Source: a virus
Taxonomy: Duplodnaviria > Caudoviricetes
Reading direction: 5' to 3' (one strand)
IMG/VR virus record: IMGVR_UViG_3300032007_000001
DNA length: 64,000 bases
Shown here: piece after piece, positions 9,295 through 61,179 of the stretch
Numbering within the stretch: position 1 is the first letter of the stretch
Layout: each line of letters starts with the position of its first letter
Position numbers and translations under genes: made by a program
The notes under the pieces: generated by a model
Seen by the model: the letters and a program-made list of their open reading frames with translations, nothing else
Told to the model about the DNA's origin: nothing
The model's database searches: none

Positions 9295-9478
9295 GTTTAT
9301 AATCAATACGTAAACGAACGATATTTTATTATCGATATAAATTTAATTTGAAAAATGAAGCTAGAGGGGGAAATACCTTATGGCAGTTGATTTGAGACGC
9401 CTCGACGCCAATGGCCTTAATTATTATTTTAAGGAAGTTGGTTTATTATATGACCAAAAATATGTTTCCAAAGATGAA
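9295..9478 (+). repeat. Imperfect direct repeat, copy 1 (upstream region plus first 33 codons)
   Basis: Aligns by eye with 20235..20411; identical peptide MAVDLRRLDANGLNYYFKEVGLLYDQKYVSKDE. Confidence 0.9.
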
Positions 9479-10333
9479 GTACGAGTAACCAATGTTACGT
9501 TAGAAGGTAATTCTTTAGTTATATATTTTAATGACGGAACAAGGAAAAAACTTGACGAATATGATGAAGAATTTGAGAACCTAAGAACATACTTAAATGA
9601 TAAATTCAGTGAAGTTGAAAATTCTGTTAATAATATAAATTTAACTGTGACAGGCAAATGTGCTAGTGATGAAATAACATTAAGCCCAAATAATAATGTA
9701 AATATTGATATTAGTTCTGTTGATGCAGATACAATCAATGTAACATCTGTAACTGATAATAATAGATATTTAGCACTCGTTGATGGCGTTGGCAATCAGG
9801 AAGTACATAATATCGAAGATTTTTATGTTAATTGTGATAATAAAAAATTATACGTTACAAATATCGAATGTTCTGGAGATATTAAAGGTAATCGTGTATT
9901 TAATGCAGTCTGGAATGACTATGCTGAATTAATGCCTCGAGGAGAAGAAACTGAACCTGGCGATATAATCATGTTAGACCTTAAAACCAAAGATGAACGT
10001 TATATTAAAGCTACAGATAAATTAGGTACAGTAGTAGCTGGTGTTCATTCGGATGAATTTGGTATGCTAATAGGCGGAGAAAAGCCAGTTGATAGTAAAG
10101 ACCTATTAGAGTATAATATAGACAAATATATTCCAATAGCTCTATCCGGCAGAGTTCACGTTAAATTTATCGGTAAAGCTAAGAAAGGAGCTAAAGTAGT
10201 TCCTTCTTCTGAACCTGGATATGGACGTTTATATAATAAAGGAGTAGATGACCCAGATACTATTATTGGGTATTTGGTTGAAGATGATGACAAAACAGAC
10301 AAGAGAAAACTTAAAATTAGAATCACGAGGTAA
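9380..10333 (+). CDS. Tail fibre/spike protein with C-terminal peptidase-G2-like intramolecular chaperone domain
   Basis: RVFNAVWNDYAE, GVHSD.FG..IGG, PIALSGRVHVK. Confidence 0.7.
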   Translation: MAVDLRRLDANGLNYYFKEVGLLYDQKYVSKDEVRVTNVTLEGNSLVIYFNDGTRKKLDEYDEEFENLRTYLNDKFSEVENSVNNINLTVTGKCASDEITLSPNNNVNIDISSVDADTINVTSVTDNNRYLALVDGVGNQEVHNIEDFYVNCDNKKLYVTNIECSGDIKGNRVFNAVWNDYAELMPRGEETEPGDIIMLDLKTKDERYIKATDKLGTVVAGVHSDEFGMLIGGEKPVDSKDLLEYNIDKYIPIALSGRVHVKFIGKAKKGAKVVPSSEPGYGRLYNKGVDDPDTIIGYLVEDDDKTDKRKLKIRITR

Positions 10334-18366: not shown

Positions 18367-19269
18367 ATGAAATCAGATTGTTTATATGGTCATAAAATAA
18401 CTGTTGGATATAATTGCAAAGGTCAAGATTTTTTTGATATATTATCTTTTTATAAGAAATATATAGAAGAATTCTATTTTTCTTTTAGGCATACTATGCC
18501 CAAAACACCATTAGATTTAAGTATTATTTATAATCAATTAAAAGATTCAGAACAATATGATATTCCTTCTAATTTGTTATTAAATACAGAACAAGAAGAA
18601 TTGGAATGGGAATATCTTATTAATAAAGCTTATGAATGTACAAAATTGCAAGCTGTGTCTGTATTAAATATAAAAACTGCTAAAATTATAAAAGAAAAAT
18701 TTCCAAATATAAAAATTCACATATCTACTCATGGTGCGCAATATATTGATATTAAAGAATTAGATAAAAACTTAATTTATTGTGTTAATGTGAATGAACC
18801 GGCAATTTATACAGAACAACAACAAAATGTTATTAAAAAATGTAAAAAAATTGGAATTAAACTTAAGCATATAACTAATAGAGGCTGTATTTTTAATAAA
18901 CACGATTTTATGTCTCGTTTAACTGGGAAAAATATAATGTGTTGCAATGGATATCAATGCAAAAAAATATTGAAAGATTATCCATGGGTAGATTTAATTA
19001 GAACGAATTTATATAAAGAACAATTAAAATATCTTAATTTTGATTTTATTAAACTTTCTACTAGGGAAAGAACAAATGAAGAAATTAGTATGATGCTTAA
19101 ATATTGGACAAATCCAAAAATATCTACTGCTCATTTGTCGAATATTTATATATCAGAAAATAAATATCCAATTTTCTTAGAATGGTGTAAACAAAGATTT
19201 ATTTGTAATGGAAATTGCATAACTTGTAATATATGTAAAGAATACTATAAAAAATTAAAAGAAAATTAA
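18367..19269 (+). CDS. U32-family (UbiU/TrhP-like Fe-S) protein
   Basis: IHISTHG, ITNRGC, FIKLSTRE, C-terminal CNGNCITCNIC. Confidence 0.7.
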   Translation: MKSDCLYGHKITVGYNCKGQDFFDILSFYKKYIEEFYFSFRHTMPKTPLDLSIIYNQLKDSEQYDIPSNLLLNTEQEELEWEYLINKAYECTKLQAVSVLNIKTAKIIKEKFPNIKIHISTHGAQYIDIKELDKNLIYCVNVNEPAIYTEQQQNVIKKCKKIGIKLKHITNRGCIFNKHDFMSRLTGKNIMCCNGYQCKKILKDYPWVDLIRTNLYKEQLKYLNFDFIKLSTRERTNEEISMMLKYWTNPKISTAHLSNIYISENKYPIFLEWCKQRFICNGNCITCNICKEYYKKLKEN

Positions 19270-20234: not shown

Positions 20235-20411
20235 GTTTATAATCAAAATGTAAATAAATGATATTTTATTATTGATATAAATTTGATTTAAAAAGCTGTA
20301 GGAGGAAACCTCATGGCAGTCGATTTAAGGCGTCTAGATGCCAATGGTCTTAATTATTATTTTAAAGAAGTTGGCTTATTATATGACCAAAAATATGTCT
20401 CTAAAGATGAA
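20235..20411 (+). repeat. Imperfect direct repeat, copy 2
   Basis: See 9295..9478. Confidence 0.9.
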
Positions 20412-20939
20412 AAAAGAGTAATCAATATTTATTTAAGTGGTAATACATTAATTATTCAATTTAGTGATGGTTCTACACAAGAAGTAGATGTAAAATATAG
20501 TGAAGCATCTAATGATGAATACGGACTTGTAAAATTATATTCCAGCGAAGGTAACAATACAGACGGCGCAATGTCGCAAAAAGCTATTACAGATTTGATA
20601 ACACAAAAAACATCTTCTGCTAGATATGGTGTTTGTTCAACAGCTGCTGAAACGGCAGCAAAAACAGTTGAATCGGCAGGACAATTTATTTTAGAAGCCG
20701 GTTCTAGAGTAACCATTAAATTTACAAATGTCAATACTGCAAATGCGCCAACATTAAATGTAAATAATACTGGTGCAAAATATATTTATGCTAATGGGCA
20801 TCAACTTACAGCAAATAGCAATTTGATAGTTGCTGGTGGCATATATGATTTTGTATATGATGGAACAAATTGGGAAATGCCAAATATTACAAATGTTCCA
20901 AAAGAATCTGGAATTATAGATTTCTATACAACTCCATAA
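20313..20939 (+). CDS. Tail fibre-like protein (same N-terminus as 9380)
   Basis: YGLVKLYSSEGNNTDGAMSQKA, YGVCSTAAETAAKTV, PTLNVNNTGAK, FVYDGTNW fibre motifs. Confidence 0.8.
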   Translation: MAVDLRRLDANGLNYYFKEVGLLYDQKYVSKDEKRVINIYLSGNTLIIQFSDGSTQEVDVKYSEASNDEYGLVKLYSSEGNNTDGAMSQKAITDLITQKTSSARYGVCSTAAETAAKTVESAGQFILEAGSRVTIKFTNVNTANAPTLNVNNTGAKYIYANGHQLTANSNLIVAGGIYDFVYDGTNWEMPNITNVPKESGIIDFYTTP

Positions 20940-23595: not shown

Positions 23596-24582
23596 TCATT
23601 TGAGTCCCTTTTTTGATTTTTCGTACATATATAAATCTGGTCTAAATGGTCGATTGAATATTGGATATTCTTCATATAATTGATTACATATCTTACATTC
23701 ATCACAATGAAATTTATCACAATATAAAAGAGAATCTGGAATTACAGATGTATTTACGTCATAAATATTTTTATTTGCTGGGTCTATAAATAATTCGCTT
23801 AATTTGCAATCTTTTCTAGACGCATATATGTCAATAGGATGAAATATGCTTGAAATGTATTTTCTTGAACGAGTATTTAATTTATAAATATCTACATATT
23901 CATCTAAAATATTTAGCCATCTTGGCAAAACATAACATCTTTTCAAAATTTCGTTATTGTTAAGACAATTTCTTTTTGAGTAATTACATCCGCACGTCGA
24001 ATAATTTGTACATGTTATTGAACATGTTTCGTTAATTAACAATCTTATTTTGAATCCATTTTCTTTAAGCACTTTAAGAAATGGGATATTTCTGGCTGCG
24101 TCTCTTGGTGGATTTATATAATTGAATCCTTCATCATACCATTGTTTATAATGATTTAAGTTATAGTACGGTAAATTACAACTTGTAACTATTTCCAATT
24201 CCGGATAACGTTTTTTTATTGTTTTTGCAATTGTAAAATTTGTGGTTGCCATTCCATACAAATTATATTTTTCTATAGCGTTTGAAATTTTTTCAATAAT
24301 TTCTTGTAGTTCATTGTTGGTATATTTTATATAATAATCAATATCGTTACATAAAATTGTTATTCTTAAATCAGAATTTTTCGATTCTTCTAAAAAATTA
24401 ATGCAGTTTGTCTTATAATTTTCATGTTTTTGGTCATTACAGATTGTCATGAATGTATCTATTCCTGGACATTCTGTAAAAATATCGTGAATTAAGTTTT
24501 TTCTTTTTTCAGCTTCGTATAAAAAATCATTTATTTTATTTGTACCATTAAATCCTATAGCAAATTGTTTCATTGACTTCAT
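23596..24582 (-). CDS. U32-family protein
   Basis: IVTSC, PPRDAARN, LLINETCSITC, IYKLNTR, CDKFHCDECKIC; paralogue of 33453. Confidence 0.75.
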   Translation of the reverse strand: MKSMKQFAIGFNGTNKINDFLYEAEKRKNLIHDIFTECPGIDTFMTICNDQKHENYKTNCINFLEESKNSDLRITILCNDIDYYIKYTNNELQEIIEKISNAIEKYNLYGMATTNFTIAKTIKKRYPELEIVTSCNLPYYNLNHYKQWYDEGFNYINPPRDAARNIPFLKVLKENGFKIRLLINETCSITCTNYSTCGCNYSKRNCLNNNEILKRCYVLPRWLNILDEYVDIYKLNTRSRKYISSIFHPIDIYASRKDCKLSELFIDPANKNIYDVNTSVIPDSLLYCDKFHCDECKICNQLYEEYPIFNRPFRPDLYMYEKSKKGLK

Positions 24583-24627: not shown

Positions 24628-25899
24628 TCACTCCTCATCAATGTTTTTTATGCCAAATGAATTAAAAAATGATATGTAGTTGTTTGTGCCGATTATTTCT
24701 GACAATTTCATATATTGCGGTGATTGAGTATTTTCGTATTTTTTCAATATATGAAAAGATTGACCATTGAATTTGCTAAACATAAAACGTTTCAATTCAT
24801 TTGGTACACTTTTATTGACTGCAATTGCGAACGTTTTTCTATCATTTTTAGGCATTTTTTCATACCATTCGTCAATCGCTTTTTGTGTATCGCGAACATA
24901 CTTATACACAATGTCAGCAACCTTTCTAATATTTTCTCTATATGCTTCTGGTACTTTTGATATAATATCATCAAAATAATCGTCTGCTATGGACTTCATT
25001 ATAATATTTGGTGCTGACACGAAAGAGAGAATTCTATGAACTTCTCTATATTCGTTGCATTTCATCTTATACATATTGCCGTCTACATATAATACCCAAC
25101 CTTCTTTTTCTTCGGCGTGGTAATTATCAATTGAATTTATGACTTCGTTAAACGTTCTATTTTCAACTTCTGTATGAGGAACGTTATATTTGTTTGCATA
25201 TTCAACCATTTCATTATATGTAAATTGTCTTCCAGTATATACATCTCTAATACCAATCAAACAAAGTTTTGTTTCGTTGTACTTAACAACTATTAAATTA
25301 TTTGGAGATATATATTCGAAAATGAAAGTTAGATTTGGATTTTCTTTTACCATATTTTGGTGATTAACGCTAGAATTAAAGATATCCAATCCGTCTTTTA
25401 GTTGTTGACTTTCTTTTGGGTCAATGGCTGAAGAACCAGTATAAAAAAATTGATTATTATACCAACGAGCTTGTTGCATGGACCCATCCAATTTATTTGA
25501 TATTTCAACCGTTTTTGCACATTTAATGTTATTGATTACATTTTCCATGCTCGTTTCTGGAATTTCATTTACATTAAAAAACTTTTTAAATGGACACAAT
25601 ACAATATTTTCGTTCTTTATATCAATAACCAAACTACGTAATTCACGATAAATGGAATTCGGATTTTCATATAAATCCGGTTGTTCTTTTCCGATAAGCG
25701 AATATTTAATTAAAGCAATGGAAGGAAACATTTCGTCATTTTGCGTAATCTTAACGCAATTGACAAAATGATTATATTCATCTTTATTCAATTGATGAAT
25801 CATATTCTTAAGATTATAAATTTCTTTTTCACCGAATGTATTGATATAATCTTTTTTTATTTTCATTATGAAATTGAATCCAATATTCCATTCAAACAC
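24628..25899 (-). CDS. RNA ligase, T4 Rnl1-like
   Basis: KFFNVNE, KLDGS (motif I), FEYISPNNLIVVKY, EGWV, KMK; GTG start after GAGGTG. Confidence 0.85.
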   Translation of the reverse strand: MFEWNIGFNFIMKIKKDYINTFGEKEIYNLKNMIHQLNKDEYNHFVNCVKITQNDEMFPSIALIKYSLIGKEQPDLYENPNSIYRELRSLVIDIKNENIVLCPFKKFFNVNEIPETSMENVINNIKCAKTVEISNKLDGSMQQARWYNNQFFYTGSSAIDPKESQQLKDGLDIFNSSVNHQNMVKENPNLTFIFEYISPNNLIVVKYNETKLCLIGIRDVYTGRQFTYNEMVEYANKYNVPHTEVENRTFNEVINSIDNYHAEEKEGWVLYVDGNMYKMKCNEYREVHRILSFVSAPNIIMKSIADDYFDDIISKVPEAYRENIRKVADIVYKYVRDTQKAIDEWYEKMPKNDRKTFAIAVNKSVPNELKRFMFSKFNGQSFHILKKYENTQSPQYMKLSEIIGTNNYISFFNSFGIKNIDEE

Positions 25900-25917
25900 G
25901 TTTTTCACCTCAATGTA

Positions 25918-25946
25918 ATTATACCACAAATGAAATCATGTGTAAA
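25918..25946 (-). promoter_or_regulatory. Sigma-A-like promoter TTTACA-17-TATAAT (extended TG)
   Basis: Consensus match upstream of the ligase. Confidence 0.65.
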
Positions 25947-25963: not shown

Positions 25964-27124
25964 TTAAGCCTTCTCTTTGTTCATTTGAAAACCGAGCAAT
26001 GTTATTAGAAATCCAATTACTGTAAATCTAAAATCAAATGTTAAAAAATATCCAATTGGACAAATTGTACATGAAAGTAGCGTTACATAAAATAATCTTT
26101 TTTCATTAAATTTATTAAAAATAATCATTAAACTTGGCAAAACAATACATGCTCTTATTGTATTGTAAGATAAAAATGCTTGAGTAATATTAAAAATATC
26201 AAATAAGAATACAAAACATGCAAATGATAATGCTATTACCATTATAATTCTCGAAATGTTATCACTAAACTTAAATTCATTTTTTGCAAAACTCGCTATA
26301 GAAATTAAATTACTATCCAATGTAGATACCAATGCACAAAGAATAGCTACCAACATAACATGTTGTAATACGCCAGTATAATTATGCATTCCTAAAAATC
26401 CAACATATCCAAACATTAATGGTATTAACATAAATAAAAATGATGCTAACCCAAATGTTTTTACCAAATTTTCAGGTTGTATACTCCATGCGCGTTGCCA
26501 CATTGTTGAATCACTATATGGAGACGAAAGCAATCCCATTCCAGCTGTTATCCCAAACGTCATCCAAATTTCCATTGTTGATAATCCTTTATGACCAACC
26601 CAAGAAATATTTGCTAACGTTTCTGAATTTGTAGATGCAATACAAATTACAGCGGCACAAATAAATAAAATAATATATTTATATGAATCTGTAATAATAC
26701 TTGCTTTTAATCCATTTCTCCATACTAATAAAAGTGCTATTAATGAAATAAAGATACAATTGAAATATTTGTTTGGAATTAAATATTCCAATGCCGTACT
26801 AATTCCAACAATTTGAACGCATACAGACATTAATAAAATTACACAACTTACAAACAAATGAATTTTTTGTTGTCTTTGTGATGCATTTTTGAATCCGTCT
26901 ATTAATGTATATCCTTCTTTTGATTCTCTTATTCGTTTAATAACCAAACTAAATAAAAACATTGTCAATGTATTTGGAATTAAGAACATTAAAAATCCAG
27001 CAATACCATTATTATATGCCTGTGCACTAGAAATTAAAAGCGCTGGCGCCCAAATCCAAGTTGCAGCTAGACTTGATGCATATTGAAATAAATTACCGTC
27101 ATACCATCTGTAATAATTATTCAT
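25964..27124 (-). CDS. Sodium:solute symporter-like membrane transporter
   Basis: About 12 hydrophobic segments; SLAATWIWAPALLISSAQAY..G, GLKASIITD, WQRAWS, STLDS. Confidence 0.75.
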   Translation of the reverse strand: MNNYYRWYDGNLFQYASSLAATWIWAPALLISSAQAYNNGIAGFLMFLIPNTLTMFLFSLVIKRIRESKEGYTLIDGFKNASQRQQKIHLFVSCVILLMSVCVQIVGISTALEYLIPNKYFNCIFISLIALLLVWRNGLKASIITDSYKYIILFICAAVICIASTNSETLANISWVGHKGLSTMEIWMTFGITAGMGLLSSPYSDSTMWQRAWSIQPENLVKTFGLASFLFMLIPLMFGYVGFLGMHNYTGVLQHVMLVAILCALVSTLDSNLISIASFAKNEFKFSDNISRIIMVIALSFACFVFLFDIFNITQAFLSYNTIRACIVLPSLMIIFNKFNEKRLFYVTLLSCTICPIGYFLTFDFRFTVIGFLITLLGFQMNKEKA

Positions 27125-28154
27125 TATTATTTTCCTTTTCTAAATCAATTTTTTCAAAATTAATATTATATAAACTAATTCCATCTGTTGCTACTATAAA
27201 TTTTTCATTGATTTGATTTTGATAATCTGATGGCGTAATATTATGAAAAGAAAACCCTTTTCCATAATTATCAAATTCATCCTTGAATACTTTTCTTAAA
27301 ACTTGCTTAAATTGTGGTTTGTATTTTTTATTATCCCATGATTCTCTTTTATGAAGAATATAATCTAAATTATTTAATGACCAATCTGTAAAATTTTGTG
27401 TTGTAAAAAATGGTTTATGTACTTTTGGTGGTAATTGATGATACATAAATATGCTGGATGTTTCCCAATCTGTCCATCTTACAGCAAAATTAAAAAACCA
27501 AGAAAGTTGTTGTAATGTTTTAATTTGGTCGCCAAAATTAAAATGTGATAACCATTCTTTCAATTTTTCATTTGTTGCCAATGTAAAAAAATTTTCATAT
27601 TGTTCGTCTAAATCGTTGAAGTTCTTTTCAGATGACATTACGCCATGGTCTATTTGGTCTCCACAATGACCATTTACTATGACATAATTTTCATTTTTCG
27701 TTGTATTAGCAAGAATGGCATCCGAAAAACCAGTTACATCTTCATCGAAAAATAATGTTTTTATATTATTTTTTTCAATCCATGGTAAAAGGATTTCTTT
27801 GTTTTCTAGAAATTTTTTGTCAGTAGCAATAATACATTTATCTATATTCCCAGTTAAATAAAAAGATGCGGCTATTGTTGATGAATCAATACCACCAGAA
27901 ACACATATGAAAATTTTATCATATTTTTTTGAAATTTCATTTGCTCTATCTATACAAATTTCTTCAAAAGATTTTTTACATTTTGCATTTAAGTTATATT
28001 TATAATCAATGATATCTTTATACAATATTAAATCTAATTTATTAAATCTATCATATGTGTCAACTTGACATTCAAACATATTAAGAGGTCTTTTAAATGA
28101 CATCCCTCTTAATTTATATAAACAAAAATTTCTAAAACCAGTAAGTTTATTCAT
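27117..28154 (-). CDS. AsnB C-terminal/PP-loop ATP-pyrophosphatase-like protein
   Basis: VSGGIDSS, NGHCGDQI, KPFF. Confidence 0.7.
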   Translation of the reverse strand: MNKLTGFRNFCLYKLRGMSFKRPLNMFECQVDTYDRFNKLDLILYKDIIDYKYNLNAKCKKSFEEICIDRANEISKKYDKIFICVSGGIDSSTIAASFYLTGNIDKCIIATDKKFLENKEILLPWIEKNNIKTLFFDEDVTGFSDAILANTTKNENYVIVNGHCGDQIDHGVMSSEKNFNDLDEQYENFFTLATNEKLKEWLSHFNFGDQIKTLQQLSWFFNFAVRWTDWETSSIFMYHQLPPKVHKPFFTTQNFTDWSLNNLDYILHKRESWDNKKYKPQFKQVLRKVFKDEFDNYGKGFSFHNITPSDYQNQINEKFIVATDGISLYNINFEKIDLEKENNNE

Positions 28155-28736: not shown

Positions 28737-28937
28737 GTGATTCATTTGGGAAATTTTGATAATAATTCATTTCATAACGAAATTAAAAAAATGAAAGAAC
28801 AAAACTCTCTTATAAGAGAAGATATAAACGATTTGATATTAATGAGTAAAGAAGAAGCATTGGAATTGCTTGAAAATATAAAAACAAATCTAAAAACAAT
28901 TCATCAAAATATTAAAAGCATGAAACAGGAGGATTGA
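28737..28937 (+). CDS. Small hypothetical protein
   Basis: ORF; first gene of the rSAM mini-operon. Confidence 0.5.
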   Translation: MIHLGNFDNNSFHNEIKKMKEQNSLIREDINDLILMSKEEALELLENIKTNLKTIHQNIKSMKQED

Positions 28938-29156: not shown

Positions 29157-30182
29157 ATGAAGAAAATAAATCCAATACAATCAATATTTATAATGCTTGG
29201 AAATGAATGCAATTTAAGTTGCAAGTATTGTATTCAGCATGTTATGGTCAATGAAGTAACACCGCATGGAATCAATAAAGATATTATTAAGTTTATAAAA
29301 AATCTTTCTGATAGACAAATATTGCCATTCCAAATTTTTTTCTACGGTGGCGAACCGTTGCTTTGGTTTGAAGATATTAAAAAATATACAAAAGAATTTT
29401 ATGGATATGCTAATTTTGCAATCATTACAAATGGAAAAGCTTTGGACGAAGAAAAAGTAGAATTTATAAATGAATATAATATTGGCGTTGGTGTTAGTTA
29501 TGATGGAAGAAATTCCAATTTTACAAGAGGATACGACGTCTTAAAAGATAAATACGATATCTTATTGAATATTGTTAATTTATCTTTTTCTGGTGTTATA
29601 TCTTGTTACAATTATCCTCAAGATTGGTTGGAAGATTTGAAGTGTTTTTCAGATGATTTCTTAAAAAAATATAATCGTTACGTTGGTACTAATTTAGATT
29701 TATTAATGAATAACAATAAATTGGAAAACACAGACAATTTCGATATGTCAAAAATTAGAAAGCAAATGGAAAATTTGTGTAATGATTATTATAAAAGGAG
29801 CATATCGGAAACTAAAAAAACATTCAATGATACTTTTATAGATAGTTTATTAAATATGAGCAATAACTATCCAGATTTAGACCATTACGGAAAATGTATG
29901 AATGGTATAAATGTATTAAATATTGACGCAAATGGTGAAATGTATTTATGCCATAATTCTAGAATCAAACTTGGAAATTTAGAAACTCCAAGAAAAGAAA
30001 TGACAAAAAAATGTTTAGATATGTATACTCCAAAATTACATTGCAAAGAATGCAATGTATTAAGTTATTGTTGCGGTGGATGTATGCTAAGCACACAAGA
30101 AGACTTAGATAATTATTACTGTGAATTAGCTAGGAATATGTACGAACCCGTAAAAGAATTATATGAAAAACTAAACAACTGA
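29157..30182 (+). CDS. Radical SAM/SPASM protein (anSME/peptide-maturase-like)
   Basis: CNLSCKYC, FYGGEPLL, ITNG, VSYDG, C..G....IDANG.MYLCH, CKEC.....CCGGC...C. Confidence 0.9.
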   Translation: MKKINPIQSIFIMLGNECNLSCKYCIQHVMVNEVTPHGINKDIIKFIKNLSDRQILPFQIFFYGGEPLLWFEDIKKYTKEFYGYANFAIITNGKALDEEKVEFINEYNIGVGVSYDGRNSNFTRGYDVLKDKYDILLNIVNLSFSGVISCYNYPQDWLEDLKCFSDDFLKKYNRYVGTNLDLLMNNNKLENTDNFDMSKIRKQMENLCNDYYKRSISETKKTFNDTFIDSLLNMSNNYPDLDHYGKCMNGINVLNIDANGEMYLCHNSRIKLGNLETPRKEMTKKCLDMYTPKLHCKECNVLSYCCGGCMLSTQEDLDNYYCELARNMYEPVKELYEKLNN

Positions 30183-30192
30183 ATGGTGATAA

Positions 30193-30621
30193 AATGTAAC
30201 TGCACTTTCTACTGAAGTTACTAAAAAATTTGACTTAAATACAGATTTTTGTTATATTTATCCGAATAATGGGACAGAACAAAATCCAGCAAACGTTTCT
30301 ATAGGTACTCGGTATGTTGAAAGCAATCCATTTCCTGGTTATATTGTGAATTGCATAGCTGAGGTTTTGTTTAATAATCTTTGGTCTGAAGCAAAATATG
30401 CTAATTGGTTGTATAATTCTACTTATAAATCTTATGGTATTGTCGCTATACATCATAATAACGACAGTATTATTGTTCAAACTGGGGTTACACGTTTGTT
30501 GGAACACTCCGGTTTTACCGGTAATGCATATGGAGAAAATTTTCCATCAACTACAGATACTTCATCACTTCCATGTAGAATTAAAGTTTGGAAGATAGGA
30601 AAAATAAAAGAGACCGATTAG
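30193..30621 (+). pseudogene. Orphan tail-fibre C-terminal (tip) domain lacking its N-terminus
   Basis: KFDLNTDFCYIYPNNGTEQNPANVS...ESNPFPGY...PCRIKVWKIGKI aligns to the C-terminus of 51372; the RBS-ATG at 30194 is out of frame and followed by TAA. Confidence 0.7.
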
Positions 30622-30632
30622 GTCTCTTATTT

Positions 30633-31412: not shown

Positions 31413-32033
31413 GTGAAGAATATGAGCGAAAGTACGCAAACTCTTCATATAAACGGAGAAACAATAAAATTATACGATAATGTCAATGATGTTGGCGCAA
31501 ATAAAACAACAGTTGGTTCTTTATTTGCAAAAATGGACACACCAGAAAACAATAATGTTAATAATAGCAAAACCGTTATTAACGGAAAAAAAATATTGGT
31601 TAGAAATTTTACAACGATTTCAACGCTTCCAAGCCAATCTGGAAGCTTAATTTATACTGGTTCGTCCAGAACACCATTATGGAACGATTATAATGCATCA
31701 AATCTATCAATTAGTGGAACAACATCTGCTGTTTCTGCCGGTTCTTATACTGCAACATTTACACCTAAATATGGTTATTCATGGAACGATTGGAGTACAG
31801 ATTCTAAATCAAATACATGGGCAATTGGAAAGGCTGGCGGGATATGTTCGCCAACTTCTACAAGTACAAGTGTAACGCATTCAAATTGCGAATGTAATCA
31901 ATGCCAACAATGTAAAGATTGCACGTATTATGAATGTAATATTGTGCAATGTAATTATTATCAATGTTCTTTTTACCAATGTACTGATTGTTCTTATTAT
32001 TACTACTATTATTATTCGTGTAGTTGCGGTTAA
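31413..32033 (+). CDS. Fibre-like beta-repeat protein with Cys/Tyr-rich C-terminal tail
   Basis: PSQSGSLIYTG...AGSYTATFTPK.GY.W domain; 12 Cys in the last 47 aa. Confidence 0.75.
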   Translation: MKNMSESTQTLHINGETIKLYDNVNDVGANKTTVGSLFAKMDTPENNNVNNSKTVINGKKILVRNFTTISTLPSQSGSLIYTGSSRTPLWNDYNASNLSISGTTSAVSAGSYTATFTPKYGYSWNDWSTDSKSNTWAIGKAGGICSPTSTSTSVTHSNCECNQCQQCKDCTYYECNIVQCNYYQCSFYQCTDCSYYYYYYYSCSCG

Positions 32034-32050
32034 TTGGAGGTTAATATATA

Positions 32051-32398
32051 ATGAGTTCTACAACAATTCCCATTAATACACATGGTGGTACATTATCGGC
32101 GACGTCCAACAATAATTCTGTTGCTACAGCTTATACAAGCGGAAATGATGTTGTTATATCTGGCGCTGGTTCCGGTATTTGCACTGTAACAATAACAAGT
32201 GGTGAAACATCAAATTATAAATCGGCATCAGCTGGTATTACTGTTAATTCTACAGCAACAAATTGTCAGTGTGATAAATCACAATGTAATTCTTATAAAC
32301 AGGACAAAAAAAAATCAGCACCGAGCAATTGCGCACAACAATGTTATAATTGTTATAGTTGCAGTTGTAGTTGTAGCTGCGGTGGCGGCGGTGATTGA
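32051..32398 (+). CDS. Ig-like (Big_2-type) protein with Cys-rich C-terminal tail
   Basis: SATSNNNSVATA...G.G...VTIT; 10 Cys in the last 44 aa, ending CSCSCSCGGGGD. Confidence 0.75.
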   Translation: MSSTTIPINTHGGTLSATSNNNSVATAYTSGNDVVISGAGSGICTVTITSGETSNYKSASAGITVNSTATNCQCDKSQCNSYKQDKKKSAPSNCAQQCYNCYSCSCSCSCGGGGD

Positions 32399-32431
32399 TA
32401 TCATTATGAATGAAATGGAGTATAACAACAT

Positions 32432-33463
32432 ATGAATAATTTAATTGGATTTAAGAATATTTCTTTATATTCATTAAATGGACTTCGTTCTGGGAAATCT
32501 TTAGTTAGACGAAGAACTTTTGAGATGCTAAAATGTAAAGAATTCTATTATGATAGATTTAAGAAATTTAACAATGTTTTTTTTAGTGACAAAATAAATT
32601 GGAAATATAATTTAGATGGGAAATGTAAGAAAACGTTTGAAGAAATATGCATAGATAGAGTAAACGAATTTTATAATAAATACGATAAAATCATATTATG
32701 CGTATCTGGAGGTATTTCTTCAGTTACAATTTTAAGTGCATTTGCATTAGCAAATTGTTTAGATAAATTAATAGTTATTTTTGACCAAGATATTATTGAA
32801 AATAAATCAATTTTAATTGATTGGTTCAAAAAAAATAATATTGAAATGGTTAATTGTAAAGAAGAAGATTTTATAGATAAAATAAAAAATATCTTAAAAA
32901 TCTATCCGAATAGCGTTATTACTAATGGAAAATGTGGAGACCAAATAAGTCATGGTATCAGTTCTATTGACTTAAAACGCTTTGGACAATTTGACCCAAA
33001 TGTTGATTATAATTATTATTTTGAATTTTCAAGGTTTGATTTATTGAAAGAATGGATTGAAAAATATCCTTTTAAGGAAGATATAAAAACATTACATCAT
33101 TTGACTTGGTTAGTAAATTTTTCTGTTTGTTGGATGTATCAAGAAACAATATTTATGTTTTTATATAAGCAACTTCCTCCATCCATACATAAAGCATTTT
33201 TTGCAACGCAAGAATTTACCGATTGGGCAATTAATAATTTAGACATTATTTTAAGTGGAAAACCTTGGGAAGGCGACATATACTATAAACCACATTTTAA
33301 GGAAGTAATAAGAAAAGTTTTTGGTAATCAGTTCGATAGATGTAGCAAATTAGAATCATTGAATGTATTATGGAATTTAGATATGGAAAAAATTGCACAA
33401 AACGATAATATTTTTGCTACAGATGGTCAAAAATTTTATACGTTAGATTTTATTGAAAAATGA
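32432..33463 (+). CDS. AsnB/PP-loop-like protein (degenerate SGGISS)
   Basis: Paralogue of 27117; NGKCGDQI. Confidence 0.7.
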   Translation: MNNLIGFKNISLYSLNGLRSGKSLVRRRTFEMLKCKEFYYDRFKKFNNVFFSDKINWKYNLDGKCKKTFEEICIDRVNEFYNKYDKIILCVSGGISSVTILSAFALANCLDKLIVIFDQDIIENKSILIDWFKKNNIEMVNCKEEDFIDKIKNILKIYPNSVITNGKCGDQISHGISSIDLKRFGQFDPNVDYNYYFEFSRFDLLKEWIEKYPFKEDIKTLHHLTWLVNFSVCWMYQETIFMFLYKQLPPSIHKAFFATQEFTDWAINNLDIILSGKPWEGDIYYKPHFKEVIRKVFGNQFDRCSKLESLNVLWNLDMEKIAQNDNIFATDGQKFYTLDFIEK

Positions 33464-34442
33464 TAAGGAAGATTATAACATGAGTTTATTTTCTGTTCCA
33501 TATAATGGATATGACGTAGATACATTTTTATGTGAATTAAATAAAAGAATAGACCATATTAATGATGTATATTGCGAACTTCCTAAAATCCAATCTTGTA
33601 AAACGATGAGTTTGCAATCGTTAGATTTCTTAGATTATGAACAATATTCAAAAAATTGCGAAGAATTTCTCATAAAAACAATGAATACGGACCTCCAAAG
33701 ATATGTTACATTAAATGCAATAAACTACTATAAAAAATATGATGATTATCAATTAATGTATATGATAGATGTTATATGCAAAAAAATAGAAAAATATAAA
33801 ATACAAGGTATTATCGTTGCAAACCAAACGATAGCATCTTGTGTAAAAGATGCATTTCCAAATATAAAAATTTCTATTTCAACAAATGCAAATTTATATA
33901 CATTAAATGAAACTAGAAAATGGAAACTTATTGGTTCTGATTTTTTAACACCACCAAGAGATATGAATAGAAATATCAATTACTTAAAAATGATAAAAAA
34001 AGCTGGATTTAAGATTAGATTAATGTTAAACGAAGCTTGTTCTATGTTTTGTAATAATTATTCAATGTGCGGGAAAGCCAGAGGAAAAAGAGGATGTTTG
34101 GACCCAAGTCATTGGTTGCAAAGAACATATATTATTCCTCGTTGGTTAGATATTTTAGATGAATATGTTGATGTATATAAATATGCTGGAAGATTTTCAA
34201 GAACAGAACATATTTTTAAGTCTTTAGATTGTTATATTAGTAGAAAAGATTGTACACTAAAAGATTTATTTGACCAAAAAGGTACAAAATTATTTGGCGA
34301 TTTTAATACATCTGAAATTCCTGATAAACTCATATATTGTAATTGTGAGGAATGCGATACTTGTAATGTATGTTCTTCAATTTACGAAAAATATCCATAC
34401 TTAAATGATAAATCGCGTTCGCTTATAACATTAAATGAATAG
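33453..34442 (+). CDS. U32-family protein (likely start 33480)
   Basis: ISISTNA, PPRDMNRN, MLNEACSMFC, YKYAGR, CNCEECDTCNVC. Confidence 0.75.
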   Translation: MKNDKEDYNMSLFSVPYNGYDVDTFLCELNKRIDHINDVYCELPKIQSCKTMSLQSLDFLDYEQYSKNCEEFLIKTMNTDLQRYVTLNAINYYKKYDDYQLMYMIDVICKKIEKYKIQGIIVANQTIASCVKDAFPNIKISISTNANLYTLNETRKWKLIGSDFLTPPRDMNRNINYLKMIKKAGFKIRLMLNEACSMFCNNYSMCGKARGKRGCLDPSHWLQRTYIIPRWLDILDEYVDVYKYAGRFSRTEHIFKSLDCYISRKDCTLKDLFDQKGTKLFGDFNTSEIPDKLIYCNCEECDTCNVCSSIYEKYPYLNDKSRSLITLNE

Positions 34443-35634
34443 AGATGATTTTATGAATAATCTTATTGGATTTAATAATATGTCATTATATCCAAATTTT
34501 GGATTTCTTTATAAAGATAGTCGTAGCACATTGTCAGATTATATGGGGTTAATATCAATTTTTAAGTGGTTTTTAATTCCAGACGGTTCATATGATAGAT
34601 TTCATAACATACCAACGTTGTTTGATGATAAAATCAATTGGCGATATAATTTGGATGGGAAATGCAAAAAGACATTTGAAGAAATATGCATTGACAGAGC
34701 AAAAGAAATATATGATTCGCATGACAAGATTTTTTTAGGATTTACAGGTGGAATTACGTCTTTAACATTATTAAGTACATTTGTATTAAATAATCAATTG
34801 GATAAATTGATTATTTTATATGATGAAAATATTGAAAATAAAGAAATATTATTTGATTTTTTCAAAAAAAATAATATTAAAAATTATCTTTTTGGATATA
34901 AGGATAATATGAAATCATATTCAGATACAATAAAAGAACATGTATCAGAAAATGAAAAATTTTGCATAATAAATGGGTTGTGTGCTGATTATTTTGAATT
35001 CGGAAAATGTACAGCCTTATATACAAGACAAAATGTTGATGATATTATTGATGAATATAATAATACAATATTTAGCCCATATGAAAATTTTTTCAAAGAA
35101 AAAAAATATTCGCAATTAAATATTGTCAATGAATGGGTCTCAAAATTTCCATTTGGTGATAAAATAAAAAGTATAAGAGATTTGGCCTGGTTGTTTTCAT
35201 TTTCTGTATTATGGACACATTTGGAAACAAAGCATATGTTTACATATGATAAATTTATGCCGTACGTACATAAGCCATTTTTCTGTACTCAAGAATTTAC
35301 AGATTGGGCAATTAATAATTTAGATGAAATTTTAGAAAACAATTATATATGGACGAGAGATGGCAAAAATTATAAATTAAAATTCAAAAAAATTATTTCA
35401 AAAGTATTTGATGATAAATTTGACAATCTTCAAAAAGAAAATAGTTCCTTATATATAAGGAGCAGAAGAAGAGACAGATATATAAAAGATAAAGTAGAAA
35501 GAGATTTTAATGCCCATGATGCAAAAAAATATAAAGATATTCAAACTTTTTTATATTATGGTGATGAATATATATATAAAAATTTTGCAACTGATGGAAA
35601 AAGGTTTTACGGTCTTGACTTTATAGAAAAATAA
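34435..35634 (+). CDS. AsnB/PP-loop-like protein (degenerate TGGITS)
   Basis: Paralogue of 27117 and 32432; NGLCADY. Confidence 0.65.
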   Translation: MNRDDFMNNLIGFNNMSLYPNFGFLYKDSRSTLSDYMGLISIFKWFLIPDGSYDRFHNIPTLFDDKINWRYNLDGKCKKTFEEICIDRAKEIYDSHDKIFLGFTGGITSLTLLSTFVLNNQLDKLIILYDENIENKEILFDFFKKNNIKNYLFGYKDNMKSYSDTIKEHVSENEKFCIINGLCADYFEFGKCTALYTRQNVDDIIDEYNNTIFSPYENFFKEKKYSQLNIVNEWVSKFPFGDKIKSIRDLAWLFSFSVLWTHLETKHMFTYDKFMPYVHKPFFCTQEFTDWAINNLDEILENNYIWTRDGKNYKLKFKKIISKVFDDKFDNLQKENSSLYIRSRRRDRYIKDKVERDFNAHDAKKYKDIQTFLYYGDEYIYKNFATDGKRFYGLDFIEK

Positions 35635-35682
35635 AAAATAAATGCATAGATTGTTATCTATGCATTTTAATTAAGGTGAAAA

Positions 35683-36675
35683 ATGTATTATTGTGATTCT
35701 TTGAATAATAGCGAATTTAATATAACTGGAAATATAAATAACATTTTCATTAAATTATGTGTTGCTGGTATAAAAAATCCGCCAGTTGTAAAATTAAATG
35801 TCAATCCACAAAAAACATTTGATGATTTTTTTAACTTAAAAAATAAATGTATAGAAAAATTTATTTTTCATAAAAATAATGACTTAAAAAATTTTTCTTG
35901 CATAGATTGCTATAGAAAAACAGAACGTGACAATCTTATAAATTTAGACAACAATATAAAACATATAAACATTAATATACATAGTTCTCCGTGCCAATGT
36001 AAATGTATATATTGTCAAAATGTCTATAATTTTAACGACAATGAAGAAACTAAAAAATGGTATAATGTTTTTTTTGAAACTATGTTATATGGAATTAAAA
36101 AACAATATATCTCGAAAGATTGTATGTGGAGACTAGATGCTGGAGAAATAACAATTCATCCATATAAAAAAGAATTTTTTAATTTATTAAAAGATTTTAA
36201 GACAAGATATTACACTAACGGATTTATATTTGATAATGATATTGCAAATGCATTGAAAAACATTAATAATGAATTAAGTATTTCCATTGATTGTGGTACA
36301 TCTCTTTCTTGGGAAAAAATAAAAGGATTTAATAATTTTGATAATGTAAAAAAACACATAAGCAAATATATACAACATTGCATAAATACACAACAAATAC
36401 ATATAAAATATATAGTACTGCCAGAATATAACAATAATTTGGATGATTATATTGGGATTATTAATTTCTTAAAAGAAAACAATATTAAAGAATTACAAAT
36501 AGCAAGAGATATACATTTAAGATATACTAAAGATATTAAATATAAAAATTCATTATTAACATCAGTTTCACAATTAAGTAAAATATGCAAATCTAGCAAT
36601 ATATACCCAGATATTATGAATAAATTCTTTTCGAAAGAAGAAAAAGATTATATAAAAATAAAAGAGCTTAATTAA
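35683..36675 (+). CDS. Radical SAM protein with N-terminal Cys cluster
   Basis: CQCKCIYC, AGEITIHP, YTNG, ISIDCG. Confidence 0.85.
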   Translation: MYYCDSLNNSEFNITGNINNIFIKLCVAGIKNPPVVKLNVNPQKTFDDFFNLKNKCIEKFIFHKNNDLKNFSCIDCYRKTERDNLINLDNNIKHININIHSSPCQCKCIYCQNVYNFNDNEETKKWYNVFFETMLYGIKKQYISKDCMWRLDAGEITIHPYKKEFFNLLKDFKTRYYTNGFIFDNDIANALKNINNELSISIDCGTSLSWEKIKGFNNFDNVKKHISKYIQHCINTQQIHIKYIVLPEYNNNLDDYIGIINFLKENNIKELQIARDIHLRYTKDIKYKNSLLTSVSQLSKICKSSNIYPDIMNKFFSKEEKDYIKIKELN

Positions 36676-37907: not shown

Positions 37908-37996
37908 TGGCGGAGTGGGTGGGATTTGAACCCACGCAGGATTTCTCCTCTAACGATTTAGCAAACCGTCCTCTTCAACCACTTGAGTACCACTCC
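37908..37996 (-). tRNA. tRNA-Ser(GCT)
   Basis: Long variable arm; TT-GCT-AA. Confidence 0.92.
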
Positions 37997-38002
37997 ATGT
38001 TA

Positions 38003-38078
38003 TGGTGGAGACAAGGGGAATCGAACCCCTGACCTCTTGCTTGCAAGGCAAGTGCTCTCCCAGTTGAGCTATGTCCCC
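38003..38078 (-). tRNA. tRNA-Ala(TGC)
   Basis: G3:U70; CT-TGC-AA. Confidence 0.95.
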
Positions 38079-38082
38079 ATTA

Positions 38083-38173
38083 TGGCGGATGGGGAGGGAT
38101 TCGAACCCCCGCGCGCTTTGCGACGCCTATCGGTTTTCAGGACCGAACTCTTCAGCCACTTGAGTACCCATCC
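38083..38173 (-). tRNA. tRNA-Ser(TGA)
   Basis: Long variable arm; loop CC-TGA-AA (C33). Confidence 0.88.
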
Positions 38174-57640: not shown

Positions 57641-57717
57641 TGGCAGAGGCGGTAGGAGTCGGACCTACGAATATTCGGGTCAAAGCCGAACGTGTTCAAC
57701 CACTTCACCACGCCCCT
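57641..57717 (-). tRNA. tRNA-Gln(TTG), atypical
   Basis: TTCGG CT-TTG-AC CCGAA; A1:U72; T-loop TCCGAC. Confidence 0.8.
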
Positions 57718-57757
57718 ATTTTAAGTATGCAATTTGTATAAATGTTTTGTTTTTAAT

Positions 57758-57834
57758 TGGAGCGTACAGTTGGATTTGAACCAACGAATAACGGTTTTGC
57801 AGACCGTGCCCTTAGACCACTTGGGTATGTACGC
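57758..57834 (-). tRNA. tRNA-Cys(GCA)
   Basis: CT-GCA-AA; U73. Confidence 0.92.
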
Positions 57835-57836
57835 AT

Positions 57837-57914
57837 TGGCTCCCGAGGTAGGACTCGAACCTACGACCTACGGTTTAACAGACCGTTGCTAACCACCAGC
57901 TGAGCTACTCGGGA
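57837..57914 (-). tRNA. tRNA-Asn(GTT)
   Basis: CT-GTT-AA; U1:A72, G73. Confidence 0.92.
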
Positions 57915-57919
57915 ATATT

Positions 57920-58005
57920 TGGTTGGTCGGGTAGGATTTGAACCTACGAAGGATTACTCCGCGTGATTTACAGTCACGATGCTTTAACCACTTGCATACC
58001 GGCCA
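57920..58005 (-). tRNA. tRNA-Tyr(GTA)
   Basis: CT-GTA-AA; long variable arm. Confidence 0.88.
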
Positions 58006-60815: not shown

Positions 60816-61179
60816 TGGTGGAGATGAGGAGAATCGAACTCCTGTCCGAAACAAGACTTCAAATGGGTCATTACCGCTGCTAGCTGGCTTATCGCACCAG
60901 TATACGTATAAAAGAAAGGGGGATTTGATGAAAATGGTTTTCTTAATTCTTAAGAAAAGTCCAAAGAAATAGTGGGAATTATCTGAAACCCAGTAGCGGC
61001 TTCTCCACAGTCTTACTGGGGGCTGGTAAAGCGTGGCAGACTTACGCCGGCATTACCTTACGCAGCGATGGCAACATAATCGTTGTCAGTTATTTTTTTG
61101 AAACGTTTTTTAGGATTCAGTTTCTTCATCCCGCGGAACCTCAAATGATTTCTCATCCCGTCGAAACCATTGCATCCCC
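60816..61179 (-). ncRNA. ssrA: tmRNA; tag (A)DNDYVAIAA
   Basis: 5' GGGGATGCAATGGTTTCGAC; 3' GGACAGGAGTTCGATTCTCCTCATCTCCACCA; tag ORF 61058-61087 after AATAACT. Confidence 0.95.

Follow-up and report, generated by a model that had tools for sequence, protein, structure and literature searches.

Cys-rich peptides cross-linked by radical S-adenosylmethionine (rSAM) enzymes with a SPASM domain are well known, and the extension of this chemistry to a whole protein was shown only in 2026, for the Crp system of Methanococcus voltae (PMC13692751). There the 28.8-kDa protein CrpA, which carries C-X-X-Q/D repeats, is cross-linked by the SPASM rSAM CrpC (PMC13692751). Because CrpC acts on CrpA, SPASM rSAMs can modify folded proteins with repeated motifs. 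Here we describe a comparable locus in a virus, IMG/VR record IMGVR_UViG_3300032007_000001, of which a stretch of 64,000 nucleotides (hereafter the window) was analysed; it encodes two small proteins with Cys-rich C-terminal tails, CysA and CysB, and a SPASM rSAM, rSAM29157, which is their candidate maturase. The resemblance to the Crp system lies in a folded protein with C-terminal periodic Cys beside Gln or Asp, in an adjoining SPASM rSAM (which in the Crp system installs ranthionine thioethers) and in two paralogous substrate genes side by side.

Other described systems share parts of this arrangement. PapB joins Cys to Asp or Glu (PMC9413430), and PapB and CteB make Cys-to-Asp/Glu/Thr side-chain thioethers in Cys-rich cores (PMC9413430, PMC12373016; 5WGG). 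QhpD/QhpC (quinohemoprotein amine dehydrogenase) comprises a SPASM rSAM that makes Cys-Asp or Cys-Glu links inside a protein subunit, and the NCBIfam families TIGR04115 (CXXX-repeat), NF038107 (CefB, Cys-every-fifth) and TIGR04068 (CcpM) combine a SPASM rSAM with a substrate in which Cys recurs at a fixed short period. The phage locus nevertheless differs from each of these. CrpC has a recognition element (RRE) for ribosomally made peptides that are modified after translation (RiPPs) and belongs to TIGR04463, against which members of the rSAM29157 clade score about 30-35 bits, below the cutoff of 525; the repeat of CrpA is 17 residues long, whereas the phage tails have periods of 2-5 residues and end in (N/D/S-C)n-G-D-D; and the Crp genes lie in a context of archaeal metal metabolism, not in a phage fibre module. 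PapB and CteB are the best sequence and structure matches of rSAM29157, but they act on 40-50-aa leader-core peptides bound through an RRE, which the phage enzyme lacks. QhpD acts on a periplasmic enzyme subunit whose cross-links form a fixed set and which has no repeats and no tie to phages, and the substrates of the TIGR04115, NF038107 and TIGR04068 systems are small bacterial peptides, whose enzymes the phage enzymes match weakly. A literature search found no description of a phage rSAM/Cys-tail system, and the curated families likewise contained none.

The genes on which the comparison turns are the following.

29157-30182, plus strand: rSAM29157, a SPASM radical SAM protein of 341 aa, candidate core maturase on the basis of motifs, family matches and locus association
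30608-30628, unstranded: bidirectional terminator-like hairpin with an 8-bp stem, 4 GC pairs and T runs on both strands
31413-32033, plus strand: CysA, 206 aa
32051-32398, plus strand: CysB, 115 aa
32432-33463, plus strand: PP32432, predicted AsnB-class protein, 343 aa
33453-34442, plus strand: U32_33453, U32-family protein, 329 aa
34435-35634, plus strand: PP34435, predicted AsnB-class protein, 399 aa
35683-36675, plus strand: rSAM35683, a second radical SAM protein, 330 aa
36660-36683, unstranded: hairpin at the end of the operon

The six open reading frames (ORFs) from CysA to rSAM35683 (31413-36675), all of which a preliminary description of the window had placed correctly, are tightly packed, with gaps of 18, 34, -11, -8 and 49 nt in order, and the start of CysB is preceded by a GGAGG ribosome-binding site.

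CysA ends in NCECNQCQQCKDCTYYECNIVQCNYYQCSFYQCTDCSYYYYYYYSCSCG, a tail that includes a run with seven Tyr and a terminal SCSCG, and CysB in NCQC...CYNCYSCSCSCSCGGGGD, closing with (SC)4-GGGGD. The ORF translations agree with the preliminary description in that both tails open with NC[EQ]C and close with YSCSC and hold 12 Cys (CysA) and 10 Cys (CysB). The tails are 48 and 45 aa long; the poly-Tyr run that it reported in CysA is also there, with seven Tyr instead of the six it gave. A six-frame scan of the window found no comparable C-terminal Cys run in other real genes. Cys follows Gln, Glu, Asp or Asn (Q/E/D/N) in 10/12 cases in CysA (permutation p < 5e-5) and 6/10 in CysB (p = 0.013), and this bias, together with the absence of comparable Cys runs elsewhere in the window, indicates that the tails are not a product of chance. 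They also display the ranthipeptide-type trait of Cys donors beside Asp/Glu/Asn/Gln/Thr acceptor types in a repeated motif.

The only close relative, and the only close syntenic counterpart of this region, is a 9.2-kb metagenome contig (L001/L002; L-numbers denote contigs or loci retained from the searches for relatives, several of which cover only the best-scoring of the relatives found). Its gene order is two 66-aa ORFs, rSAM, two minus-strand genes, CysA', CysB', PP, PP, with no U32 gene between the PP genes. The CysA homologue is 64% identical overall with a remodelled tail, and the CysB homologue has 15 Cys arranged as (CxQ)n, then (DC)n, then (SC)n-GGGD. Q/E/D/N precede Cys in 10/15 cases in the latter (p = 1e-4) and 5/5 in the former; in the tails of both contigs the other Cys belong to the terminal (S-C)n run. 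The L001 tails are thus alike in kind, not in sequence, to those of the window: the carriers are kept and the tails are remodelled by gain and loss of repeats. The tail-coding DNA of the window (31926-32016, 32342-32376) is made up of short tandem repeats whose periods are 15, 3, 9 and 6 nt, and the L001 and window tails differ by indels of whole repeats. Slippage is probably how the tails evolve, and between strains they may be hypervariable. As an observation apart, the dominant residues of the tails (C, N, Q, Y, S) are also those of phage transfer RNA (tRNA) genes at 57641-58005 (minus strand) and 37908-38173 (minus strand), with Cys, Asn, Tyr and Gln in one cluster in addition to two Ser; this set may supply translation of the tails or may be a coincidence.

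The proteins that bear the tails appear to be of a type found in virion appendages. CysA consists of an N-terminal segment, an immunoglobulin (Ig)-like domain (about residues 68-157) and the 48-aa tail, and CysB of an Ig-like domain and the 45-aa tail. In the PHROG profile phrog_37900, positions 209-298 are matched by CysA residues 68-157 (E 6e-23) and positions 302-369 by CysB residues 4-69 (E 0.007). As adjoining positions of one profile are matched, CysA and CysB appear to be consecutive parts of one longer protein type, in keeping with the earlier suggestion of a split adhesin; the pair is also split in L001. CysB has a further match to phrog_215, 'structural protein with Ig domain' (E 0.004), and CysA scores 17.1 bits against He_PIG, below the cutoff of 24. 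Residues 69-143 of CysA share 52% identity with a domain of gp68 of Faecalibacterium phage Taranis, which is a target protein of a diversity-generating retroelement and is encoded beside tail-fibre genes; the domain also occurs in proteins of 475-1169 aa bearing DUF6273, Big_2, Big_3 or He_PIG. The PHROG matches, the Taranis domain and these Ig-like/DUF6273 proteins favour the earlier view of the carriers as Ig-like or fibre-type. Periodic Cys, the Q/E/D/N bias and the association with rSAM genes further suggest, at the level of sequence, that the tails resemble substrates of RiPP-like enzymatic maturation on proteins of virion-appendage type, as had been proposed.

rSAM29157 has the hallmarks of a SPASM peptide or protein maturase. 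Its CxxxCxxC motif (C18, C22, C25) and the seven Cys of its SPASM motif (C247, C265, C296, C299, C305, C309, C322) are invariant in an alignment of its clade, and it passes the cutoffs of Pfam Radical_SAM (40.5 bits, cutoff 29.5) and of the generic SPASM model TIGR04085 (32.4 bits, cutoff 27). The best family match is PapB (85.5 bits, below the cutoff of 340), followed by the nif11-type family and, among further matches, QhpD (TIGR03906, 67 bits), SCIFF (66.4 bits, cutoff 425) and CcpM. The closest solved structure is CteB (5WGG, E 1.8e-11), and the alignment begins only at CteB residue 95 (residue 6 of the query), which indicates that rSAM29157 has no RRE domain. Among NCBIfam models, none beyond the generic SPASM model passes its cutoff for the rSAMs of this clade and none matches the tails; the PHROGs label for rSAM29157 is merely 'radical SAM domain-containing protein'.

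The clade is large and uncatalogued, with at least 295 relatives found when viral contigs were searched with an alignment of it and 242 in bacterial genomes. We surveyed 78 retained viral loci with a strong rSAM match for a periodic-Cys-tailed protein encoded on the same strand within 6 kb, and 80 control loci anchored on the PP-loop family to which PP32432 belongs and lacking the rSAM29157 clade. ORFs were called by a simple longest-ORF heuristic, the tail criterion was of our own setting, and Fisher tests overstate independence because loci from one collection may be related. A tail was found at 44/78 clade-anchored loci versus 0/80 controls (Fisher p = 5e-18), and among PP-anchored loci at 4/6 that are clade-positive versus 0/80 that are clade-negative (p = 7e-6). 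Despite possible kinship among loci, the pairing turns up with carriers, tail grammars and host phyla that differ widely. rSAM29157, which the preliminary description had classed as an orphan, is therefore the gene that consistently accompanies periodic-Cys tails. The other rSAM so classed, at 61435, has generic rSAM similarity only (E 5e-9 to the clade profile).

The 60 tails found in the clade survey sit on carriers of 77-958 aa. Asn precedes 41% of their Cys, Asp 9% and Gln 8%, and about twenty have a [GS]-D-D-type motif after the final Cys. Many carriers are fibre proteins of 300-958 aa; some have an Mtd_N tail-fibre N-terminal domain (34.6-43.8 bits, cutoff 26.3) and one, in L131, has collagen repeats. 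A 365-aa protein of L055 ends in ...CNCNCNC, and in L020 a 409-aa protein with fibre repeats ends in CNCDCRCDCDCNDDNCGE. A leader-like motif shared across carriers was sought and rejected: the N-termini fall into several unrelated classes, and an eight-way alignment has no invariant column. In bacterial genomes about 45 of 80 retained loci show an upstream protein ending in ...NCNCNC(R)C. Prophage-like loci with the rSAM-tail pairing occur in Rhodobacteraceae, Burkholderiales and Sutterellaceae, and Acutalibacteraceae are a further host group. The system is present in the cultured, non-pathogenic strains Thalassobacter stenotrophicus CECT 5294 (three copies), Nereida ignava CECT 5292 and Limnohabitans parvus II-B4. 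The cultured phages JWF and RP12/RP31 contain distant rSAM relatives (23-24% identity) with no Cys tails nearby and are of little use as models.

In the closest relatives of rSAM29157 (30-39% identity; L109, E 1e-71) the rSAM gene has one or two tail genes immediately behind it. The module opens with a fibre-like protein and the rSAM, after which come tail proteins 1 and 2, then two small genes and, last, a second rSAM with a single further gene behind it; these compact modules lie within blocks of baseplate and fibre genes. In L005, which was reached through the nearest outside relative of the PP proteins, an SSS-like membrane protein comes first, two rSAM/SPASM enzymes of the clade flank three small proteins whose CxxC tails are of HC/YC type, and three PP paralogues follow the second rSAM. 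L109 (11786-14608), L099 (12210-14669) and L097 (6232-9080) also encode a second, shorter SPASM rSAM and conserved proteins of ~131, 273 and 240 aa that have no counterpart in the window. Upstream of the module in L109 (7573-8196) and L099 (7505-8134), a baseplate-block protein of 207-209 aa ends in ...NCDCDCGDDM or ...NCNCDCSDDGG; the tail may be common to several structural proteins of a single phage. Within the window, two fibre-like proteins on the plus strand (9380-10333 and 20313-20939) share a 64-aa N-terminus (73% identity) and bracket the module of CHxx and rSAM genes. The C-terminal 157 aa of ORF 9380 are 46% identical to the C-terminal domain of the fibre-like protein that heads the L109 rSAM module, and, as ORF 9380 heads the CHxx module, the CHxx and Cys-tail modules of the window appear to be variants of one theme.

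On the observed gene content, folds and statistical association, we infer that the periodic-Cys tails of CysA and CysB are substrates of rSAM29157, encoded 1.2 kb upstream, a member of a clade found in phages and prophages beside proteins ending in (C-Q-x)n or (N/D/S-C)n, often with G-D-D. We propose this enzyme as a thioether former because the Q/E/D/N-before-Cys pattern matches ranthionine acceptor types and its nearest characterised relatives are PapB, CteB, QhpD and CrpC. It would abstract a side-chain hydrogen from the Gln, Glu, Asp or Asn adjoining each Cys, after which multiple Cys-S-to-carbon (ranthionine-type) thioethers would form in both tails, and each tail would become a compact knot, resistant to reduction and protease, at the distal end of the protein. 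It is thus fairly probable, in our judgement, that CysA and CysB are small Ig-like virion appendage or decoration proteins whose tails are cross-linked by rSAM29157 as the core maturase, the downstream genes being lineage-specific additions.

Several points weigh against this proposal. The enzyme is RRE-less and falls far below every curated family cutoff, so it could catalyse another reaction, such as the making of formylglycine (the anSME type) or of a C-C link. No tail was found within 6 kb at 34/78 clade loci, and in L020 the Cys-tailed fibre gene is 3.6 kb from the rSAM gene, with NrdD and Dam genes between. In the window rSAM29157 and CysA/CysB are separate transcription units, parted by the 30608-30628 hairpin and two minus-strand genes. 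Trimeric fibre tips can, moreover, bind metals unmodified. Finally, two small genes directly precede that of rSAM29157.

28737-28937, plus strand: 66-aa ORF, kept in L001
28941-29141, plus strand: 66-aa ORF, kept in L001

The second has conserved Cys beside acidic residues (NQC[DE]..., HLCGY..DE), and the products of both ORFs could be the true substrates of rSAM29157; they are possible alternative substrates or partners of the enzyme. A further small ORF, at 30346-30621 (plus strand, 91 aa), corresponds only to the C-terminal portion of an L001 gene of 163 aa, both ending in ...PCR[IV]KVWKIGKI, and may be truncated or use an unusual start codon.

The genes downstream of CysB bear on how far the module extends. 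PP32432, PP34435 and a third copy, PP27117, are mutually 40-44% identical (PP34435 40% and PP27117 44% to PP32432). They have one outside match, at 56% identity, among 5.8 billion proteins; an exhaustive profile search recovered a wider family of about 335 representatives with the consensus SGG[VI]DST, for which there is no Pfam or NCBIfam model. A model of PP32432 built on 60 sequences (pLDDT 82) gives Z scores (VIA) of 12.3, 11.0, 10.7, 10.1 and 10.0 to 7ylz, 9b6c, 1jgt, 1ct9 and 1q15, the matched structures being the synthetase domains of TsnB9, human ASNS, beta-lactam synthetase, AsnB and carbapenam synthetase (CarA), and 7.7 or less to other PP-loop folds. Since the structural alignments open at target residues 132-155 and the proteins are only 343-399 aa long, they have no Ntn (N-terminal nucleophile) glutaminase domain. 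On the strength of this model the PP proteins are predicted to be carboxylate-adenylating AsnB-class synthetase domains without glutaminase. Lasso-peptide cyclases are further adenylating enzymes of the AsnB class. From the known members of the class the phage proteins differ in lacking glutaminase, in forming a new family and in the state of the PP-loop motif: the aspartate kept in 56/60 family members is lost in PP32432 (SGGISS), PP34435 (TGGITS) and the L001 orthologue, and retained in PP27117 (SGGIDS). Pfam Asn_synthase does not match the PP proteins of the window and matches 8/60 relatives weakly (best E 2.6e-4). A tblastn search of phages with PP32432 gave no match, profile searches of PDB sequences with the PP and U32 alignments and rSAM35683 gave chance-level matches only, and a three-sequence PP alignment and the U32 alignment found no relatives among viral contigs.

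The third copy lies on the opposite strand beside a membrane protein gene.

27117-28154, minus strand: PP27117, canonical AsnB-class paralogue with SGGIDS
25964-27124, minus strand: SSS-like multi-pass membrane protein, translationally coupled to PP27117 (phrog_20720, E 4e-38)

This pairing of a PP gene with an SSS-like gene (11-12 transmembrane segments) recurs, often with overlapping frames, directly after tail-fibre genes in many unrelated phage contigs, L012, L013, L014, L020, L032, L034 and L088 among them; it is also found where there is no Cys tail. Most of the 80 IMG/VR loci with the PP family have no Cys tail, and the PP gene usually follows fibre genes; arrays reach five copies (4-5 paralogues in L011, L043 and L077). 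PP genes are present in 6/78 clade-anchored viral loci and 1/80 genomic loci, and U32 and SSS-like genes in none. L147 and L166 have a PP gene, a roughly 100-aa ORF and the rSAM gene in overlapping reading frames; L169 has these genes in that order with short gaps, and L130 and L055 have them in another order. PP genes come directly after the tail genes in the window and L001, and in L005 after the second rSAM that follows the tail genes. AsnB-like genes are a recurrent but minority accessory of the rSAM/tail module.

U32_33453 belongs to the U32 family (PF01136, 27.3 bits, cutoff 22.4; atlas template-modelling (TM) score 0.86 to the U32 cluster), and the window encodes two paralogues of it, one adjoining an RNA ligase gene.

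23596-24582, minus strand: U32 paralogue, 42% identical to U32_33453 (PF01136 15.9 bits, below cutoff)
18367-19269, plus strand: U32 paralogue, 26% identical to U32_33453, with no PF01136 match
24628-25929, minus strand: T4 Rnl1-type RNA ligase (Pfam RNA_lig_T4_1, 76.3 bits), adjoining U32_23596

U32 proteins that have been characterised are Fe-S enzymes to which the hydroxylation of aromatic rings, dependent on prephenate and independent of O2, has been ascribed (PMC10990095; 10.1101/587956), and two of them act in RNA hydroxylation (PMC10990095). U32_33453 resembles UbiU/UbiV, TrhP and RlhA (10.1101/587956; PMC10990095) in its Pfam family, its mid-protein Cys cluster and an anaerobic habitat in which hydroxylation would have to be O2-independent. 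It differs from them in its Cys spacing, which at ~196-215 is C-x3-C-x5-C-x8-C rather than the four-Cys Fe-S motif CX6CX15CX3/4C (10.1101/587956), and in an extra C-terminal CxxxxCxxCxxC; only C196 and C206 of the cluster are invariant in the three paralogues. From its sequence, U32_33453 is a candidate O2-independent hydroxylase. Among the loci surveyed, U32 genes are limited to this phage lineage. The pair of U32_23596 and the Rnl1-type ligase is kept in L001 and may be a unit for tRNA repair or modification in a tRNA-rich phage.

rSAM35683 carries CxxxCxxC within SPCQCKCIYC, has no SPASM domain and gives an atlas TM score of 0.88 to a 997-member rSAM cluster, mostly of Bacillota. Its homologues (33-35% identity) stand among GT2, epimerase, NTP-transferase and NeuB genes in bacterial glycan clusters, and may represent an unstudied family of rSAMs in sugar or glycan chemistry. 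Such clusters in the bacterial loci L092, L093 and L094 hold several rSAMs, some C2185-like_N, and L093 has an HxsD-like gene.

The roles that we assign to the AsnB-like proteins, U32_33453 and rSAM35683 are putative. The AsnB-like proteins would adenylate carboxylates, either Asp/Glu side chains or the acidic C-terminus, and the same tails are probably what they act on or hold; PP32432 and PP34435, without the PP-loop Asp, may function as binding subunits, the active copy being PP27117. A complex prediction for PP32432 and CysB scored 0.00 and gives no evidence either way. An alternative that is compatible with cross-linking of the tails by rSAM29157, and that we hold as a tentative possibility, is that the downstream enzymes form a separate pathway that is merely co-located. 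In a glycan version the candidates would be the AsnB-type amidotransferase, the SSS-like permease and the glycan-type rSAM of an envelope-sugar pathway, consistent with the glycan clusters that hold rSAM35683 homologues and with the tail-free PP and SSS-like pairs that usually follow fibre genes; the operon, however, contains no glycosyltransferase or sugar-nucleotide gene. An RNA version would draw on a TrhP/RlhA-type U32 beside Rnl1 and tRNA genes, and is favoured by the preservation of the U32_23596/Rnl1 pair in L001 and by the RNA hydroxylation assigned to two characterised U32 proteins (PMC10990095), but the PP fold is AsnB-like and not TilS-, ThiI- or QueC-like. Both versions must also accommodate the translational coupling of PP to a tail-associated rSAM in L147 and L166, and the position of PP directly beside it in L169.

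Alternatively, the tails may be unmodified and form metal-binding or disulfide-knotted tips of (trimeric) appendage proteins, with the rSAM acting elsewhere, which we regard as unlikely. T4-type fibre tips contain His-coordinated iron sites, and metallothionein offers a further comparison for metal-binding tails. The CxC and CxxC spacing is usual for metal ligands, and the separation of the rSAM from the CxC-tailed fibre gene in L020 and the 34 tail-free clade loci also speak for this reading. The authors of the Crp study themselves suggested that CrpA may bind metals (PMC13692751). Against this stand the very strong, phylum-crossing association of the tails with a SPASM rSAM of peptide-maturase type and the Q/E/D/N-before-Cys bias, which metal binding does not need and which fits known thioether acceptors.

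It was also proposed that the four same-strand genes after CysB are a dedicated tailoring set for both tails, rSAM29157 being an unrelated orphan. The genes are present and their classes are AsnB-like, U32, AsnB-like and rSAM. The operon is packed tightly enough for stops and starts to overlap, PP genes come after the tail genes in L001 as well, and PP genes near the rSAM/tail module are far commoner than the background. The suggested survey of synteny between Cys tails and U32, AsnB and rSAM genes nevertheless singled out the rSAM29157 clade (44/78) and did not reveal a conserved tailoring set, with U32 and SSS-like genes in 0/78 and PP genes in 6/78 clade-anchored loci; none of the 80 PP-family loci without the clade bears a Cys tail. 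The L001 arrangement is PP-PP with no U32 between, both in-operon PP proteins lack the PP-loop Asp, and homologues of rSAM35683 reside in glycan rather than peptide clusters. We accordingly judge a dedicated downstream set to be improbable.

That CysA, CysB and related proteins serve as RiPP precursors with long leaders, from which the folded N-terminal part is cleaved to free a cross-linked Cys peptide as a toxin or signal, is very unlikely: many carriers are just 77-150 aa long with conserved N-terminal helices and a nif11-type long-leader maturase is the second-best family match of rSAM29157, but the module has no conserved protease or exporter, lies within baseplate/fibre gene blocks and often serves large fibre proteins with Mtd_N or collagen repeats, so that modification at the level of the protein is favoured.

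The wider window has a GC content of ~27% and contains 12 tRNA genes and one transfer-messenger RNA (60816-61179, minus strand; tag peptide DNDYVAIAA). The operon had no blastn match among 50,697 phage records. An RNA library from one bovine-gut run yielded four exact 151-nt contigs only (29833-29983, 30117-30267, 33516-33666 and 33699-33849), for which DNA carry-over is possible and from which we make no claim of expression; the remaining matches were short and of low complexity.

Going beyond cross-linking alone, one can imagine that phages of many bacterial phyla harden the distal tips of their receptor-binding fibres with a dedicated rSAM cross-linking enzyme and that in this lineage AsnB-like adenylation is added, together with a U32 enzyme that turns the poly-Tyr run of CysA into DOPA (3,4-dihydroxyphenylalanine)-like catechols under anoxia, giving a thioether-knotted catechol/thiol adhesive tip. 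This is a speculation to which we attach very little weight. We know of no U32 enzyme with a known protein substrate; were it true, CysA would be the first such substrate, and the system the first multi-enzyme, 'natural-product-like' decoration of a virion protein.

The logic so far seen for a whole protein in CrpA and CrpC appears here in phages and prophages, as an extensive family of modules, with the viral and genomic relatives counted above, joined to proteins of tail-fibre type. The cultured carriers of the module make the question testable without the source phage. If the tails are cross-linked, they would provide a new, sequence-predictable marker of fibre tips, and the clade would supply leader-independent (RRE-less) thioether-forming enzymes that act on repetitive, engineerable motifs. 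In that case phages would also 'weld', after translation, the region of the virion that is exposed to the host and to gut proteases.

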